From IMG/VR virus record IMGVR_UViG_3300031658_000006, positions 1 to 61,168 of that record: DNA of 61,168 nt. One strand, 5' to 3'. Position numbers and translations under genes: made by a program. This DNA is from a virus. Lineage: Duplodnaviria > Caudoviricetes. Positions 11,923-21,595 of this stretch are shown piece after piece. Within the stretch, counting starts at the first letter, position 1. Each line of letters starts with the position of its first letter. The notes under the pieces are model-generated. The model saw nothing but the letters and a program-made list of their open reading frames with translations. It made no database searches and was not told the DNA's origin.

Positions 11923-11976
11923 TCCGTCCACAGCTGTGTAGCTGTGCTGATGATGACTCAAAAGAGTCGAAACGGA
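11923..11976 (+). ncRNA. Type III hammerhead ribozyme 1 (predicted cleavage after C11928)
   Basis: Stem III TCCGT/ACGGA, GTC triplet, stem I CACAGC-TGTGTA-GCTGTG, CTGATGA core plus one extra T, stem II GACTC-AAAA-GAGTC, GAAA. Confidence 0.9.
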
Positions 11977-11998
11977 AATCTAACTTAATACTTTAGCT

Positions 11999-12373
11999 AT
12001 GGACAGCAACAAGAAAAGTCTAACTGAACTCTTAGCCACATGGGACAAGCTCCATGTGGTAGGCATAACTCCTGGAGAGGTCAACTCCATCATGACCGAG
12101 ACGGTGATGGGTGACTCCATCGTCAAGGTTGCCATTGAGTTCCAACATCGGAACTCTCCCGTCTCAGGGACGCACTCCATCCATGCCCGTCTCATAACGT
12201 ACGACTTCTATGGCAACAGGGTGACCGTGAGATTCAATGGCTCATGGGGATGCCATGACGAGGAGATACCACAGTTCATCAAGTGGTTCCATCTCAAGAA
12301 GTATGAAGCAAGGGATAAGGACGAAGCGCGAGCGAACGCAACATCGGGATTGGTAGGCAACTTCCTCGCATAG
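11999..12373 (+). CDS. Hypothetical early protein flanked by two hammerhead ribozymes
   Basis: 124 aa ORF with an AT-rich leader. Confidence 0.8.
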   Translation: MDSNKKSLTELLATWDKLHVVGITPGEVNSIMTETVMGDSIVKVAIEFQHRNSPVSGTHSIHARLITYDFYGNRVTVRFNGSWGCHDEEIPQFIKWFHLKKYEARDKDEARANATSGLVGNFLA

Positions 12374-12377
12374 CATA

Positions 12378-12397
12378 GGGGGGGACAGCGGTCCCCC
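12378..12397. repeat. Palindrome copy (loop AGCG) abutting hammerhead 2
   Basis: GGGGGGGAC AGCG GTCCCCC. Confidence 0.9.
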
Positions 12398-12450
12398 TTC
12401 TGTCTCAGGCTGTGTAGCCTGACTGATGAGTCCAAAAGGACGAAACAGAA
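12398..12450 (+). ncRNA. Type III hammerhead ribozyme 2 (predicted cleavage after C12404)
   Basis: Stem III TTCTGT/ACAGAA, GTC triplet, stem I TCAGGC-TGTGTA-GCCTGA, CTGATGA, stem II GTCC-AAAA-GGAC, GAAA; fully canonical core. Confidence 0.95.
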
Positions 12451-12488
12451 TTCAAATCAAATGGGTGATGGCCTACATCAAAAGCACT

Positions 12489-12782
12489 ATGAGAGTTTCA
12501 AAAGGAATGGACGTTTTAAACGAGTTGATGGGCATGAAATCAGCGGACGAAATAATCCTCAATGACAGCGATATCATTGCGGTTGGATGGAACTACAATG
12601 CTTCGATTCACATCCACCTGAACAACACAACGGAGCGATGGTTCCGCATCATTCAGGACGAGTTGGAGGGTATATCTGAGATGCGTCGCAGACATCCCGT
12701 CAACCCTGAAAGCTTGAGTCTGACTCAGAACTTCGACTTCGTCTACAAAGGTTTTGACATCAACCTGACCTTCAGCGCATAA
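12489..12782 (+). CDS. Hypothetical early protein
   Basis: ORF-track start 12426 lies inside the ribozyme core; ATG 12489 (or 12468) is more plausible. Confidence 0.7.
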   Translation: MRVSKGMDVLNELMGMKSADEIILNDSDIIAVGWNYNASIHIHLNNTTERWFRIIQDELEGISEMRRRHPVNPESLSLTQNFDFVYKGFDINLTFSA

Positions 12783-12789
12783 TCCTCAT

Positions 12790-12809
12790 GGGGGGACAGC
12801 CGTCCCCCC
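12790..12809. repeat. Palindrome copy (loop AGCC), possible weak terminator
   Basis: Followed by TTTT on +. Confidence 0.85.
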
Positions 12810-12825
12810 TTTTAACTCCCCTATC

Positions 12826-12909
12826 ATGAAGTATTTATTTCAGTTTTTTACAACCATCGGTATGGTGGTGACCTTCCTACTCTTCATTGCAATTGCTTGC
12901 GCACTATGA
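12826..12909 (+). CDS. Small membrane peptide (27 aa)
   Basis: MKYLFQFFTTIGMVVTFLLFIAIACAL; ATGA-coupled to the next ORF. Confidence 0.5.
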   Translation: MKYLFQFFTTIGMVVTFLLFIAIACAL

Positions 12910-13052
12910 ACTGCACAATATCATTTTACACTGGCACCCGCTCATGGTGGGTGACCAAGGACTTCAAAGACCGAAGTCACGTTGACAATTTCATTGCCTA
13001 TATCGAACGAACGAAAGGCTACAACCTAGACGAACTATTCATAAACGAATAG
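12906..13052 (+). CDS. Small hypothetical protein (48 aa)
   Basis: MNCTISFYTGTRSWWVTKDFKDRSHVDNFIAYIERTKGYNLDELFINE. Confidence 0.6.
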   Translation: MNCTISFYTGTRSWWVTKDFKDRSHVDNFIAYIERTKGYNLDELFINE

Positions 13053-13056
13053 TGTA

Positions 13057-13124
13057 TTGTTAACAACTTGTTAATAACTTATTGATACATACCATTGTTA
13101 TATACAATGTTTGTCGTATCTTTG
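13057..13124 (+). promoter_or_regulatory. Early promoter with three 11-bp tandem TTGTTAAYAAC-like boxes
   Basis: Boxes at 13058, 13069 and 13080 (degenerate); TATCTTTG at 13117-13124. Confidence 0.6.
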
Positions 13125-13149
13125 TAAAAAGAATCTAATACTAGTAAAC

Positions 13150-13190
13150 AAATCACGGGGGGGACAGACGTCCCCCACACAAATCAAATC
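13150..13190 (+). repeat. AAATCAC-palindrome-AYAYAAATCAAAT leader cassette, copy 1
   Basis: Near-identical to 13599-13638 and 16762-16801; each directly precedes an ATG. Confidence 0.85.
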
Positions 13191-13193
13191 AAG

Positions 13194-13595
13194 ATGAAAG
13201 TAACAATTGAAGTGCCTGAGTCGCATATGTTGAATATGCTTTGCAACGCGATGTACAGCAATGAGTACCTCGAAATCGTTGACGGTGAAGGAGGTAAGGT
13301 CACCGAGTGGGTAAAGAAAACACCCAATGCTATGGAGGGATATGACCACGCTGAGTGTTGGGAGCCACGATTGTTTGCGTACTTAAAGTCTAACAAAGAC
13401 CACGCGTTCAAGTTCTTGGATACTTACAGCGACGATGAGGTACAGCTAACGTGGGAGAATATGTGCAGCGGTATGATGAAGATGTCCACTAACCAAGTGC
13501 AGCATATGTCTGACCTTCTAACGGGGCGTGACGATTCCATCACGGCTGACGTATGGCTCCAGTGTTCATTGTTCGATGACGTTATATACTGCTAA
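13194..13595 (+). CDS. Hypothetical early protein
   Basis: C-terminal DDSITADVWLQ..LFDDVIY motif common in phage early proteins. Confidence 0.8.
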   Translation: MKVTIEVPESHMLNMLCNAMYSNEYLEIVDGEGGKVTEWVKKTPNAMEGYDHAECWEPRLFAYLKSNKDHAFKFLDTYSDDEVQLTWENMCSGMMKMSTNQVQHMSDLLTGRDDSITADVWLQCSLFDDVIYC

Positions 13596-13598
13596 TAG

Positions 13599-13638
13599 AA
13601 ATCACGGGGGGACAGCCGTCCCCCCATATAAATCAAAT
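13599..13638 (+). repeat. Leader cassette copy 2 (palindrome 13606-13625)
   Basis: Direct sequence. Confidence 0.85.
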
Positions 13639-13642
13639 AAAA

Positions 13643-13792
13643 ATGGATAGTAGAACCTTTACTGCCGTAGCTGATTGGGCAGAGCGCATCCAAACGATGA
13701 CGCAAGAAAACAGACTTATTAACTCACAAGATATCGTACACGATGTGTTCGGTATGCTACGAGACGACGAACACTTTTTACCGCGACTATGA
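13643..13792 (+). CDS. Small hypothetical protein (49 aa; HD..G...FLPR motif)
   Basis: MDSRTFTAVADWAERIQ...IVHDVFGMLRDDEHFLPRL. Confidence 0.6.
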   Translation: MDSRTFTAVADWAERIQTMTQENRLINSQDIVHDVFGMLRDDEHFLPRL

Positions 13793-14112
13793 AGAACTAC
13801 TTCGACAACATCAAGAGATACCGCTCATTCAGCATCAAGTATCTACCCGCTACCAACTTCAGGGGTACGCGCATTTCTATTATAGACAACCGACTCGGTG
13901 AGCGAGTGACCATCCCGTACGACTATACGTATGACAAACCTTGGGAGATAGCGGTGACGTATCTGCTCAACCTACGACGACCCATACACATAGAGTCCAT
14001 TGGTATGTCCAACACAGATGAACACGTGTTGCTAACAACTGACTTCAGTACGCGCATCAAGCAAGACGAGAAGCTAGTGGCTAAGAATAAACTTAAATCA
14101 GTAGAGCAATGA
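13789..14112 (+). CDS. Hypothetical protein, paralog of 15112..15369
   Basis: KYLPATN.RGTRI.IID.R...VTIPYDY. Confidence 0.75.
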   Translation: MKNYFDNIKRYRSFSIKYLPATNFRGTRISIIDNRLGERVTIPYDYTYDKPWEIAVTYLLNLRRPIHIESIGMSNTDEHVLLTTDFSTRIKQDEKLVAKNKLKSVEQ

Positions 14113-14249
14113 GCAAGGAAATCAAAACCATCATAGACCTATACGCCAAGGAGGGGTACGTCATCAGCGTAGAGTATGCTGAGGCTATAAACAAAGCAGT
14201 CGAAGAAGCGCACATAAAGTGGGCTAAAAACAAAACACTGGAGCAATGA
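14109..14249 (+). CDS. Small hypothetical protein (46 aa)
   Basis: MSKEIKTIIDLYAKEGY...; ATGA overlaps on both sides. Confidence 0.55.
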   Translation: MSKEIKTIIDLYAKEGYVISVEYAEAINKAVEEAHIKWAKNKTLEQ

Positions 14250-14719
14250 ATCAGAATAAACTAATAGCCCAATTTATGGGGGTAGACATTGAGAAAACTT
14301 TACAATACCACAACTCGTGGGATTTGCTGATGCCCGTGGTAGAGAAATGTTTTAATGGTACTGCGGTACAAGTGGAGGACAACAAAGACAACTTCTTTGA
14401 CATCAAGAATAGCCTACCTAATATGGAAGCAACATACAAAGCGGTCGTAGAGTTTATCGAGGGATTAAGTGTCGAACCCGACACAAAAGCTATTGACGAA
14501 GCGTTCTTCGCGGGGTTCTGTCACGCGTTGGAGTATGTCAAGAGAGAGATAGAGAACGTAGATGACATCGAACACGAGGTGGATGATTACGTCGGTGACC
14601 TAAACTTGAGCGGTACAATTTCCATCCAAGCGTCTGAGTTCCTTGACGCAGATGGATTGGTGGATGAGGTGATGCGCAAGTACGAGCGTGACACCACTAA
14701 AGACGGGAGCAATGTATAA
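14246..14719 (+). CDS. Phage ABA-sandwich-like domain plus acidic C-terminal domain
   Basis: NKLIAQFMG...YHNSWDLLMPVVEK...TYKAVVEFI motif. Confidence 0.6.
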   Translation: MNQNKLIAQFMGVDIEKTLQYHNSWDLLMPVVEKCFNGTAVQVEDNKDNFFDIKNSLPNMEATYKAVVEFIEGLSVEPDTKAIDEAFFAGFCHALEYVKREIENVDDIEHEVDDYVGDLNLSGTISIQASEFLDADGLVDEVMRKYERDTTKDGSNV

Positions 14720-15110
14720 GGTACGATTCCATCTCGCACGAGGCGAGAACTTTATGAAGTGGCAAGTCACTCAACCCAATGGAGACAAGCGTTACTTAAA
14801 CCCTGAACACAATTCAATTGCTATGTTCGGATGTAAGCTACGGGTACAGCCCAGTACAGCGCAGAAGATACACGATGGAGCAAACAAAAGCGTGTGCGCA
14901 TGGATAGATTGTCACCATTTACAAGAGACCAACGACCCTATCCCGATGACTATCTTCGATACCCGTATCTCATTCAACCCTAAGAAAAGTGTTCATTGGA
15001 TGGCTGAGGAGGGGGGGACAGCCGTCCCCCTTGAGGTTCAAGCACGTGAGTTTATACCGCTCATTGTAACCAACGGCAGAGAACTATTTATAATTCCCAC
15101 ATACGACTAA
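14712..15110 (+). CDS. Conserved hypothetical phage protein
   Basis: MYKVRFHL.RG.NFMKWQV...A.KI..GANK.VCAW; start reassigned to ATG 14712. Confidence 0.75.
   Translation: MYKVRFHLARGENFMKWQVTQPNGDKRYLNPEHNSIAMFGCKLRVQPSTAQKIHDGANKSVCAWIDCHHLQETNDPIPMTIFDTRISFNPKKSVHWMAEEGGTAVPLEVQAREFIPLIVTNGRELFIIPTYD
15011..15030. repeat. Palindrome copy inside a coding sequence (reads GGTAVP)
   Basis: GGGGGGGAC AGCC GTCCCCC. Confidence 0.85.
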
Positions 15111-15111
15111 C

Positions 15112-15369
15112 ATGGAACAAGACTACCTCAACATCCCTAACAAGCGTGGCTTCAAAGTAAACATGACACGTGGTGCATCACCCAGTGTACGTATCATAGA
15201 CCTCATGCGTGATGATACAATCACCATCCCGTACAACTACGCACACAATAGCGCGATGGCTTGTGCTGTAGCATACCTCAATAGTATTCACATCATCATC
15301 GATGACGTAGTACACGCAGAGGGCTACTCAATAGCCGTGAGTTCTGACTATCAAATCCCAATCAAATGA
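15112..15369 (+). CDS. Hypothetical protein, paralog of 13789..14112
   Basis: VRIIDLMR..TITIPYNY...AVAYL. Confidence 0.7.
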   Translation: MEQDYLNIPNKRGFKVNMTRGASPSVRIIDLMRDDTITIPYNYAHNSAMACAVAYLNSIHIIIDDVVHAEGYSIAVSSDYQIPIK

Positions 15370-19007: not shown

Positions 19008-19177
19008 ATGTCGATGTGTCGAAAAAAGTTTTCTATATACCACCATATATATTTACTCTATCTTACTCTCCCCCCGTATGGGTGAGAAGAAAAAACGACA
19101 TTATCGACACTGGTATTGGTAACCAGTTATTTAGCCCGTTAAAATCAACACACAAAACGACATTAAATCGACACCGC
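19008..19177. repeat. CGACA-rich non-coding element, copy 2 (candidate replication origin)
   Basis: Homologous to 10229-10400; immediately upstream of the primase-helicase. Confidence 0.75.
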
Positions 19178-21595
19178 ATGACACAAACCGTCACAATCTT
19201 CGCGAATATTAAGGATACGTCCACTCCTTTCTACCGAAGTGTACGCAAAGTTCTCTCACGAGTAAAGGATGGAGCGTCCAAGAATAAGGTCAACGCCATC
19301 AGGAAAGAGAAGGACAAGAGCTCACGTAACGAACTCAAGCGTGGCCTACCTGCCGTATGCTTTAGCGGTACGTTCACCAAGCGATTGGACAATGCACTCA
19401 CTCAGCATAGTGGTCTCATCTGCCTAGACTTCGATGGATACGAGAGGAGTAAAGAGATGAAGGATGAGAAGGACAAACTCAGTAAGGACAGGTATGTGTT
19501 CTCTGTGTTTGTATCGCCATCAGGCAACGGGCTCAAGGCTCTGGTTAAAATTCCTGCCGATGTAGACAACCACCTCAATTACTTCAACGCTCTAGAGAAA
19601 CACTTTAACTCTGAGCATTTCGATACCACCAGTAAGAACATAAGCCGTGTATGCTATGAGTCATACGACCCACTCATCTATATCAACGAGGAGTCACTGC
19701 TCTGGGATAAGATAGACGAGCCTGAGTATAGCGAGGTTATGGTACACCGAGACCCTAAGACCATACACATCACCGACGACAATAAGATTGTAGATATCCT
19801 ATTGAAGTGGTGGACGAAGAAGTTCGGTATGGTGGATGGCGAACGCAACATGAACCTATACAAGTTGGCTATGGCGTTCAATGACTTCGGAGTAAACAAA
19901 AGCCTAGCCTCTCATATCATGCGTGACTTTGAGCAGCCCGACTTTAAGATGGTGGAGATAACGCGCACCATCGATTCCGCGTACCGACGTACCGAGAACT
20001 TCGGTATCAAACAATACGAGGACAGGGATAAGATATCACACATCAAGGCACAGCTAAAAAGTGGTGTGTCAAAAAAGGAAGTCCGCTCTCAACTCAAGGA
20101 GTCCAGCATTGGGAGCGACGTAATTGATTCGGTATTAGAACGAGTCGAGCTGGAGAACGCAGACGTTTCCTTCTGGGAACGTAACGACCGTGGTGTCATT
20201 AAGATTATCCCGATAGACTTCAAGTCTTTCTTAGAGGACAGCGGTTTCTATAAGTACTGCCCCGAAGGAAGTAAGAACTACATCTTCGTCAAGGTCACTA
20301 ACAATCTCATAGACCACACGTCAGAGAAAGAGATTAAAGATTTCATCCTCAACTATCTCATCGACTTAGATGACAAAGGAATCTATAACTTCTTCGCTGA
20401 CTCGGTACGTTACTTTAGGGAGGAGTTCCTCACCCTGCTATCTACGATTGACATCTTCTTTATGGAGGATACCAAGGACACCTCGTACCTATACTATAAG
20501 AACGGGGCTGTCTTGATAACCAAAGACACGGTGAGTATCATAGACTACCTCGACCTAGGTGGGTACGTATGGAAAGACCACGTTATAGACAGGTCGTTTG
20601 ACGTGCGCGATGAGTACAGCTGTGACTACCAAGTTTTCATTGGGAACATATGCAACAAAGACAGCGAGCGGATAGCTACTATGCGTAGTACTATAGGGTA
20701 TATGATGCATGGGTATAAGAACATGAGCTACTGCCCAGCTATTATCCTTAACGATGAGGTCATCAGCGATAGCCCAGAGGGTGGTACGGGTAAGGGATTG
20801 TTTATGAATGCCCTCTCACAGATGAAGAAGATGGTGGTGATTGACGGTAAGGCATTCGCTTTCGAGAAGTCATTCCCCTATCAGTTGGTATCAGCAGACA
20901 CGCAGATACTATGCTTCGATGACGTGAAGAAGCACTTTGATTTCGAGCGGCTATTCTCTGTAGTGACAGAGGGCTTGACGTTAGAGAAGAAGAACAAGGA
21001 TGCTATCAAGATACCATTTAGTAAGTCACCAAAGATTGCTATCACTACGAACTATACCATCAAGGGTTCAGGGAATTCATTTGCCAGACGTAAGTGGGAG
21101 CTGGAGTTACACCAGCACTACAATAAGAACCACACCCCATCGATGGAATTCAATAAGCACTTCTTTGCAGAGTGGGATATAGATGAGTGGTATCAGTTCG
21201 ATAACTATATGGTGAGCTGTCTTCAGGGTTACCTCAGTACAGGCTTGGTAGAGTGTAAGCTTATTAACGTGGGTCTAAATCAGTTGAGAGGGAATACAGG
21301 TGATGACTTCGTTGAATGGTGCGGATTAACTAAAGGAAGCGAACACAATAAACTTCTTGAGCCAAACATCAAGGTGTATAAACAAGACCTTCTCCATGAT
21401 TTCATTCAAGACTTCCCTGACTATGCTCCTAGGGCTAAGCATTCCGTTACTCGTAACGAGTTCTATAAATGGCTGAAGGCTTACTGCAAGCACAAGCACG
21501 AAGTCGAACCTGATGATGGTCGTGATAGCGTAGGTAGATGGATGCGTATACGTAGGAAGCATGAGGCTGAGGTACAAACTAACTTAGGATTATGA
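19178..21595 (+). CDS. Primase-helicase (VirE-N/BT4734-like primase, PriCT, P-loop helicase)
   Basis: LPAVCFSGTF..R...HSGLICLDFD, SPSGNGLK, GERN..LY.LA, Walker A GGTGKG, Walker B LCFDD; start reassigned to ATG 19178. Confidence 0.88.
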   Translation: MTQTVTIFANIKDTSTPFYRSVRKVLSRVKDGASKNKVNAIRKEKDKSSRNELKRGLPAVCFSGTFTKRLDNALTQHSGLICLDFDGYERSKEMKDEKDKLSKDRYVFSVFVSPSGNGLKALVKIPADVDNHLNYFNALEKHFNSEHFDTTSKNISRVCYESYDPLIYINEESLLWDKIDEPEYSEVMVHRDPKTIHITDDNKIVDILLKWWTKKFGMVDGERNMNLYKLAMAFNDFGVNKSLASHIMRDFEQPDFKMVEITRTIDSAYRRTENFGIKQYEDRDKISHIKAQLKSGVSKKEVRSQLKESSIGSDVIDSVLERVELENADVSFWERNDRGVIKIIPIDFKSFLEDSGFYKYCPEGSKNYIFVKVTNNLIDHTSEKEIKDFILNYLIDLDDKGIYNFFADSVRYFREEFLTLLSTIDIFFMEDTKDTSYLYYKNGAVLITKDTVSIIDYLDLGGYVWKDHVIDRSFDVRDEYSCDYQVFIGNICNKDSERIATMRSTIGYMMHGYKNMSYCPAIILNDEVISDSPEGGTGKGLFMNALSQMKKMVVIDGKAFAFEKSFPYQLVSADTQILCFDDVKKHFDFERLFSVVTEGLTLEKKNKDAIKIPFSKSPKIAITTNYTIKGSGNSFARRKWELELHQHYNKNHTPSMEFNKHFFAEWDIDEWYQFDNYMVSCLQGYLSTGLVECKLINVGLNQLRGNTGDDFVEWCGLTKGSEHNKLLEPNIKVYKQDLLHDFIQDFPDYAPRAKHSVTRNEFYKWLKAYCKHKHEVEPDDGRDSVGRWMRIRRKHEAEVQTNLGL
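20071..20127 (+). promoter_or_regulatory. Candidate -1 programmed ribosomal frameshift signal
   Basis: In-frame A_AAA_AAG, stem 20081-20092/20109-20119, -1 frame TGA at 20125. Confidence 0.6.

Follow-up and report, generated by a model that had tools for sequence, protein, structure and literature searches.

A predicted dnaX-like −1 frameshift signal between the primase and helicase modules of a phage replication gene

The marine tailed phage (Caudoviricetes) represented by IMG/VR record IMGVR_UViG_3300031658_000006 carries a gene whose product joins an archaeo-eukaryotic primase (AEP) to a D5-like helicase of superfamily 3 (SF3). The record, a complete virus record of 61,168 bp, was analysed at its full length and is referred to here as the window. 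Between the primase and helicase modules, the coding sequence runs through a slippery heptamer, A_AAA_AAG, and a downstream stem-loop (Table 1). A preliminary description, made from the letters of the window, had read this arrangement as a dnaX-like −1 frameshift signal, by which a single gene yields a primase-only protein as well as the full primase-helicase. Comparison with homologues supports that reading and makes it likely that a functional, dnaX-style −1 programmed ribosomal frameshift generates a 316-residue primase beside the 805-residue fusion protein.

The primase-helicase gene and its putative recoding site

The elements of the signal are all present as initially described. The codons TCA AAA AAG, read in frame, provide the heptamer and specify S298, K299 and K300 of the 805-residue protein (residues 352-354 of the longer open reading frame (ORF) listed for the gene). 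The minimum free energy (MFE) fold of the window sequence has −13.9 kcal/mol and places the stem 6 nt past the heptamer. It comprises a core stem of 9 bp, including one G-U, a GUC/GAC extension with one bulged C, and an inner CUC-AAG-GAG hairpin, which pairs 20092-20095 with 20099-20102 around the loop AAG and draws in A20092. From the site, the −1 frame reads KKGSPLSTQGVQHWERRN and then meets the predicted TGA stop. Counted from ATG 19178, the predicted short product has 300 zero-frame codons plus 16, i.e., 316 aa, the size that had been estimated.

Table 1. The primase-helicase gene and the elements of its predicted frameshift signal, in window coordinates
Feature	Position	Strand	Description
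Primase-helicase gene	19178..21595	+	805 aa, zero frame; AEP primase, PriCT_1, D5-like SF3 helicase, C-terminal winged-helix-like domain
Slippery heptamer A_AAA_AAG	20071..20077	+	Zero-frame codons TCA 20069-71, AAA 20072-74, AAG 20075-77
Spacer GAAGTC	20078..20083	+	6 nt, heptamer to core stem
Stem 5' arm CGCTCTCAA	20084..20092	+	Codons R-S-Q
Loop	20093..20108	+	Contains the inner hairpin of the MFE fold; sequence and length differ among homologues
Stem 3' arm TTGGGAGCG	20109..20117	+	Pairs with 20084-20092
−1 frame tail GSPLSTQGVQHWERRN and stop	20077..20127	+	Translation; 16 codons, then TGA 20125-20127
Predicted trans-frame peptide of short product			...SKKGSPLSTQGVQHWER
Predicted tryptic peptide of short product			GSPLSTQGVQHWER; junction ...GVSKK/GSPL...

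The listed ORF spans 19016..21595 (+) and begins with a GTG at 19016. Its match to PHROG 28855 covers residues 55-857, and the alignment column of ATG 19178 is occupied by an ATG in 91 of 118 homologues (sampled as described below). Therefore, the true start is almost certainly ATG 19178, and GTG 19016 is an artefact of the ORF rule. The second AAAAAAG of the plus strand, at 19022-19028, falls within the non-coding extension 19016-19177 and is irrelevant. The codon that follows the start ATG (19181-19183) is ACA in 73 of the 118 relatives; the strongest synonymous conservation of the gene lies at these first codons (ratio 0.25) and probably reflects a constraint on translation initiation.

In the numbering of the listed ORF, Pfam assigns BT4734-like_N to residues 107-222 (E 1.5e-20; 74.1 bits versus a cut-off of 22.4), PriCT_1 to residues 273-328 (25.6 bits versus 21.1) and DUF5906 to residues 587-680 (28.5 bits versus 27.6); the heptamer lies after the first two and before the third. 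These were the only matches listed in the Pfam scan, with no clamp-loader AAA+ domain (dnaX family) among them. The helicase P-loop motif GGTGKG is invariant in the homologue alignment.

An AlphaFold2 model built from 45 sequences (mean predicted local distance difference test (pLDDT) score 65.4) is confident for residues 1-328 in the 805-residue numbering. By structure comparison, residues 1-182 of the model match the AEP domain of cyanophage S-2L PrimPol (Z 8.5), residues 1-277 the stand-alone primase RepB' (Z 7.4, root-mean-square deviation 14.8 over 216 residues) and residues 2-279 the complete stand-alone primase NrS-1 N300 (Z 6.5). Residues 426-696, where the model is of low pLDDT, match the vaccinia D5 and mpox E5 helicases (Z 7.0-7.6), and AsfvPrimPol is also among the structure matches. 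The Z values are middling, yet they agree with Pfam in placing the site past the primase and PriCT and ahead of the helicase, as originally claimed; identity to the solved matching structures is only 10-16%. Residues 705-791 (window 21290-21550) resemble the origin-binding winged-helix domain of phage P4 (Z 5.7 over 73 residues), which suggests that the full-length protein, and not the short form, would recognise an origin.

Conservation of the heptamer and covariation of the stem

Homologues were collected from IMG/VR with the window protein (268 of 281 candidate stretches confirmed, the best 80 of the 268 used) and with an alignment led by a divergent member (at least 532 of 597 confirmed, the best 80 of these at least 532 used), and 7 more came from binned genome contigs. 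A truncated locus (L087) was dropped, a phage with an unrelated helicase (L081) was excluded and identical copies were collapsed. This left 135 unique genes, among which 118 non-redundant genes have less than 95% nucleotide identity to each other. Identity of these homologues to the query proteins is 63-78%. Each of the 135 unique genes has a longest open frame of more than 1,800 nt that can be aligned through the site, and therefore the long form needs no shift.

A_AAA_AAN is found in 60 of 81 sequences of the first set, in 106 of the 135 unique genes and in 92 of the 118 non-redundant ones. The 135 genes divide into A_AAA_AAA (79), A_AAA_AAG (24), A_AAA_AAC (2), A_AAA_AAT (1), T_AAA_AAA (8) and other sequences (21), and gene-wide 59-61% of the Lys codons are AAG. 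Free use of AAG AAA or AAG AAG by the homologues, named beforehand as the outcome that would speak against a signal, was not seen. In a non-redundant set of 60 rows, TCA accounts for 42 of the 47 Ser codons at S352 (listed-ORF numbering) versus 30% gene-wide, and AAA for 52 of the 58 Lys codons at K353 versus 41% gene-wide; the adjoining codons vary freely, with four codons at Gly350, four at Val351 and two at Glu355.

The same bias stands out when the site is compared with the remainder of the gene. In the 118-row alignment, 83% of the Lys-Lys (K-K) pairs at this position are written as A_AAA_AAN, whereas the five other conserved K-K sites show it in 0, 2, 6, 8 and 10% of cases. Of 50 conserved Lys columns, none favours AAA more strongly than K353 and K354, and of 30 conserved Ser columns, none comes closer to using a single codon than S352 (TCA 91%). 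In a pairwise scan of synonymous differences, the three site codons (ratio 0.47) take 3rd place among 754 three-codon windows; only the start-codon region and a TTT-TGG site rank higher. Moreover, amino acids at the site change in ways that keep the heptamer, as in CCA AAA AAG, TCA AAA AAC and CCA AAA AAT. Judged by these comparisons, which had been proposed as a check, the heptamer is held by synonymous-site selection beyond what the amino acids need. Other peaks of synonymous conservation (TTT-TGG at codons 385-387, GAT-TGG in 716-727 and ACA after the ATG) adjoin Trp codons or the start codon and were set aside as ordinary codon preferences.

The second proposed check, covariation of the stem, likewise gave a positive outcome. 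In codon-anchored DNA alignments, the nine stem pairs are formed in 73.6% of cells with 81 sequences and in 69.2% with 118, versus 64.3% and 60.9% in shuffled alignments. Cells changed on both sides number 48 and 87, respectively, where shuffles give 20.6 and 38.5. The covariation score amounts to 0.276 (81 sequences) and 0.256 (118 sequences) versus 0.152-0.168 in shuffles; by each of the three measures, 0 of 500 shuffles reach the observed value. If the partners are slid by 1-3 columns, the score is at most 0.122 and 0.151.

Alignment pairs 24-56, 25-55 and 26-54 each show 5 or 6 standard pair types, e.g., UA 29, CG 22, UG 11, AU 10 and GU 1 for columns 25-55. The third base of an Arg codon, at which changes are synonymous, stands in column 24; the partner with which it covaries is a second codon position lying 32 columns downstream (29 nt in most rows; CG 44, UG 14, GC 13, UA 6, AU 4). 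Coevolution of the protein cannot account for this. Among heptamer-bearing rows, codon 366 is GAT in 21 of 23 cases where the second base of codon 358 is A, and it ends in G in 12 of 14 cases where that base is C. At the column of Arg357, CGC and CGT make up 40 of the 55 Arg codons, as compared with 28% gene-wide. This pattern of paired substitutions argues that the stem is held by compensatory change.

Stability was assessed for the 48 nt after the heptamer against 100 synonymous-codon shuffles per sequence, all of which keep the protein. Rows with the heptamer have a mean MFE of −11.38 kcal/mol versus −6.52 in the shuffles (mean z −1.77), and in 52 of these 92 rows at most 5% of the shuffles are equally stable; the window itself scores z −2.70, with 2 of 100 equally stable. 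The mean z is +0.62 in the 8 T_AAA_AAA rows and +0.09 in the 18 other rows without A_AAA_AAN. Hence, the stem exceeds the stability dictated by the protein only where the heptamer is present.

Of the 92 heptamer rows, 84 fold with an MFE of −8 kcal/mol or lower over these 48 nt, versus 5 of the 26 others. On the tree of the 118 proteins, the state of the heptamer changes 15 times. The tree provides 14-15 phylogenetically independent contrasts; in 8-10 of them stem and heptamer change in the same direction, in 0-1 they change in opposite directions, and in 4-6 the stem stays as it is. A sign test of coupled change gives a median p of 0.0078 (range 0.002-0.039). Heptamer and stem are evolutionarily coupled and were lost together in independent lineages. 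The heptamer-bearing state is spread over every major clade and lies to either side of the midpoint root, and so the simplest reading of the tree, which is unrooted, would be an ancestral cassette that was repeatedly lost.

The T_AAA_AAA relatives (L030, L034, L039, L041, L042, L044, L046 and L133) read ACT or TCT AAA AAA. They have lost the A before the Lys codons, 0 of the 8 has a stable downstream stem, and they look like decayed cassettes. Nested among them, L049 has ACA AAA AAA and is likewise devoid of the stem.

Contigs from four sequencing runs give a view of the variation within the lineage. No indel is listed in the gene, and among the 40 of 128 contig differences that are listed none falls within 20057-20118. 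At 20119, a synonymous C>T change (GAC to GAT) turns a G-C pair of the outer helix extension into G-U. This microdiversity lends slight support to a conserved site. A contig of about 96% identity from the metatranscriptome run X20 crosses the site with no indel; rare variants are invisible in contigs.

A probable ribosomal frameshift and its alternatives

The arrangement fits the textbook bacterial cassette, a zero-frame X_XXY_YYZ followed by a hairpin 6 nt downstream, and its predicted operation is simple. The majority of ribosomes would read straight through and make the 805-aa protein with its AEP primase, PriCT and D5-like helicase. Some would pause with two tRNA-Lys on AAA AAG and the hairpin at the mRNA entrance, slip back by one base onto A AAA AA, read the 16 out-of-frame codons and terminate at the TGA. 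The resulting product would contain the whole primase module, i.e., the AEP catalytic domain and the PriCT helix bundle, and no helicase, and a single gene would supply the phage with the primase-helicase and with free primase in a constant proportion. That ribosomes do shift here, how frequently, and what the short protein does are points that we infer from the comparative patterns.

The predicted short product ends about 20 residues past the region that aligns with complete stand-alone primases, and going by the model one would therefore expect a self-sufficient primase, made up of the AEP domain and PriCT. The free primase might prime in trans, take part in initiation at the origin or adjust the stoichiometry relative to a hexameric helicase. 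No conserved length is seen for the −1 tail, which measures 0-52 codons (median 11) in the window and 80 homologues; many relatives have their −1 stop at the TGA within the 3' arm. An unconserved tail fits a truncating shift, because the tail is expected to be free if truncation is the purpose, as in dnaX.

Several observations weigh against a functional frameshift. Taken by itself, the window is unremarkable: AAAAAAG occurs 16 times versus 10.49 expected, a count that 5 of 100 shuffles reach, and the stem-loop has z = −0.51 relative to dinucleotide shuffles, 56 of 200 of which fold equally well. The significance of the signal thus derives from the comparison of homologues. Even there, 8 of the 92 heptamer rows have no stable stem, 5 of the 26 heptamer-less rows have some stable fold, and 26 of 118 relatives do without the signal, which makes it dispensable. 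The coupling test on the first 60 sequences, which was underpowered, was not significant (median p 0.25), and significance came only with the enlarged set. Most relatives have A_AAA_AAA rather than A_AAA_AAG, and in E. coli the former is much less shift-prone, according to the excerpted text of a 2016 recoding review (PMC5009743). A separate tRNA-Lys(CUU) in the hosts would account for the preference for A_AAA_AAA. In dnaX, though not in all cassettes of this type, a Shine-Dalgarno-like stimulator lies about 10-14 nt upstream of the heptamer. By eye, no GGAGG-like motif is found in the 21 nt upstream of the window's heptamer; in many relatives, including heptamer-less rows, the codons AGA AGA GGT supply a GAGG about 6 nt upstream. 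The site had further been described as lying in a linker. It does lie between the modules, but the model (mean pLDDT 65) sets it between helix 283-294 and helix 299-307, within a predicted three-helix stretch after PriCT that is not obviously disordered. A cut at this point therefore removes two short helices, 299-307 and 313-328.

Finally, RNAalifold returned no consensus pair on all 118 rows or on the 92 heptamer rows. We interpret the failure on the whole family as the effect of three different registers in which the pairs sit on the codon alignment. On inspection, the pairs follow a constant i+j, the same with a one-base bulge, or a register shifted by one throughout, and these registers also account for the raised score of the slide −1 control. 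When RNAalifold was run on two clades chosen from the tree and not from structure (11 rows including the window, and 17 rows including two with no stem), the same lower stem emerged in both, beginning with a pair at the 7th nt past the heptamer.

Among the alternatives, the least improbable, though still unlikely, is that the A-rich tract and the hairpin form an RNA element with another job, and that productive frameshifting is negligible. Candidate jobs include a pause for co-translational folding or assembly, a binding site for an RNase or another protein, and the control of mRNA stability. The comparative data reveal selection on the sequence and the stem and not their function, the −1 tail is conserved neither in length nor in sequence, and the absence of the element from the 26 relatives fits this alternative as well. 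However, the conserved unit is exactly a zero-frame X_XXY_YYZ, including the preceding wobble A, with a stem at the canonical 6-nt spacing; the variants that alter amino acids keep the heptamer, and a truncating shift predicts an unconserved tail.

We give less credence to transcriptional slippage, whereby RNA polymerase adds or drops an A in the run and the edited mRNA encodes a truncated primase. The run is seven A long in the 79 unique homologues with A_AAA_AAA, and the conserved preceding A also lengthens it. Thermus dnaX employs transcriptional slippage, and in bacteria the process occurs on runs of 9 A or T (excerpts of PMC5009743). Yet no homologue has a run longer than 7, and the window and 26 others (with AAG, AAC or AAT) have only 6, compared with about 9 in the known bacterial runs of those excerpts (PMC5009743). 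A further argument is the selected hairpin 6 nt past the run, which is lost together with the heptamer. Once the polymerase has moved beyond the run, a hairpin that folds behind it comes too late to promote slippage, and hairpins are the standard stimulators of ribosomal shifts. The contigs from the four runs contain no run-length variant, which carries little weight given that rare variants do not appear in contigs. Chance, i.e., a K-K pair that happens to be written AAA AAG beside a fortuitous hairpin, with the likeness among homologues due to shared ancestry, draws on the single-window statistics (16 heptamers versus 10.5 expected, fold z = −0.51) and on kinship, which inflates raw counts, but is very improbable in view of TCA AAA AAR being kept while adjoining synonymous sites are well mixed, of heptamers at only 0-10% of the other conserved K-K sites in the same genes, of compensatory double changes in the stem and of its tree-corrected co-loss with the heptamer.

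Known systems, hosts and distribution

The predicted frameshift in the primase-helicase gene most closely resembles that of E. coli dnaX, which produces tau and gamma. Both have the heptamer A_AAA_AAG and a simple stem-loop about 6 nt downstream, and in both the shift lies inside a replication gene, the shifted product is C-terminally truncated and standard decoding gives the full length (for dnaX, the relevant passages of PMC5009743). The genes themselves are non-homologous, an AEP primase/D5-like helicase here and a clamp-loader subunit there, and the likeness concerns the recoding mechanism only. The −1 tail measures 16 codons in the window (median 11 in relatives) as opposed to one codon in dnaX; most relatives have A_AAA_AAA, and their hosts are probably not enterobacteria.

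Nested replication proteins that differ by a primase or helicase part are also made from single genes by phage T7 gene 4 (63-kDa primase-helicase and 56-kDa helicase) and by RSF1010 (MobA/RepB'). In these cases an internal translation start yields an N-terminally shortened form, whereas a frameshift is predicted here and the short form is the N-terminal primase; in addition, the T7 primase is of the DnaG/TOPRIM type and not an AEP. The tail-assembly chaperone (G/GT) shifts of phages and those of the IS3 family share X_XXY_YYZ sites, including AAAAAAG, often with a downstream structure. They fuse the product into a long overlapping ORF, while the shift considered here is truncating and lies in a replication gene. 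AAAAAAG is among the tail-chaperone shift sites of several phages in the excerpted part of PMC3483164.

The order of AEP primase, helical bundle and SF3 helicase recurs in vaccinia D5 and mpox E5, African swine fever virus (ASFV) PrimPol, the SaPI5 primase-helicase and pRN1 ORF904, for none of which did literature searches find a frameshift-derived primase-only isoform. Nor did full-text searches of openly accessible main papers yield a frameshift in any primase-helicase, PrimPol or D5-like gene. No such case is included in the excerpted portions of the 2016 recoding review (PMC5009743) or of a 2025 frameshifting preprint, and 'primase' and 'helicase' occur 0 times in the available part of the PRFect paper. 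Two announcements that contained all search terms proved to concern an endolysin or virion protein and a tail chaperone, and not a primase. On balance, we lean towards regarding the signal as the first recoding event described in the AEP-primase/SF3-helicase class: an old, ratio-setting device of a globally distributed marine family with at least 532 relatives in IMG/VR, probably phages of Bacteroidota, which was lost, hairpin along with heptamer, in a dozen or more lineages.

If this holds true, a replication gene would be added to the few truncating −1 frameshifts known from bacteria and phages, with dnaX as the classic example, and AEP primase/D5-like helicase fusions could be expressed as two isoforms. 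This would bear on the mode of DNA priming, by a free primase in trans or by a primase tethered to a hexameric helicase. The family would also offer a natural system for −1 frameshifting on A_AAA_AAA/G in hosts that do not rely on Shine-Dalgarno sequences, with the repeatedly lost cassettes as ready-made experimental controls. Truncating shifts leave no second long ORF, and for this reason annotation pipelines and finders based on ORF fusion miss them; a heptamer under synonymous constraint, a covarying stem and the joint loss of both would together provide a template for finding more.

As to the hosts, relatives occur in contigs binned as Flavobacteriaceae, Saprospiraceae, Aureispira and others, and cultured phages that share the primase module infect Flavobacterium, Polaribacter, Cellulophaga, Maribacter and Tenacibaculum. 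One relative, L085, lies at 11954-15344 of the Saprospiraceae metagenome-assembled contig CBDICY010000032.1 (3,001,278 bp), 12 kb from its end, and may represent an integrated copy or an assembly join, and thus a possible lead to a host; it carries the heptamer, but a stable stem is missing (MFE −4.8). Runs X1-X17, which cover marine, marine-sediment, sponge and glacier metagenomes from 12 studies, contain near-identical DNA (56-100% of sampled words), and the phage lineage is widespread.

In the window, the primase-helicase gene is accompanied by genes for a Sak-like annealing protein, an exonuclease and a DNA helicase, a neighbourhood that constitutes a replication and recombination module. 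The Flavobacterium 'elemo' phages were considered as comparators and rejected, as they share the primase module only (41% identity) and have another helicase; they are outside all counts and have no in-frame slippery heptamer at the matching place. In one of them, vB_FspP_elemoE_10-3D (the excluded L081, 2480-4339), the AEP and PriCT module is followed by a different C-terminal part, annotated as a primase/helicase with TOPRIM, and the join lies about 50 residues past the match to the window's shift site. The primase module, being fused to a different C-terminal part in this phage, is therefore a mobile unit.

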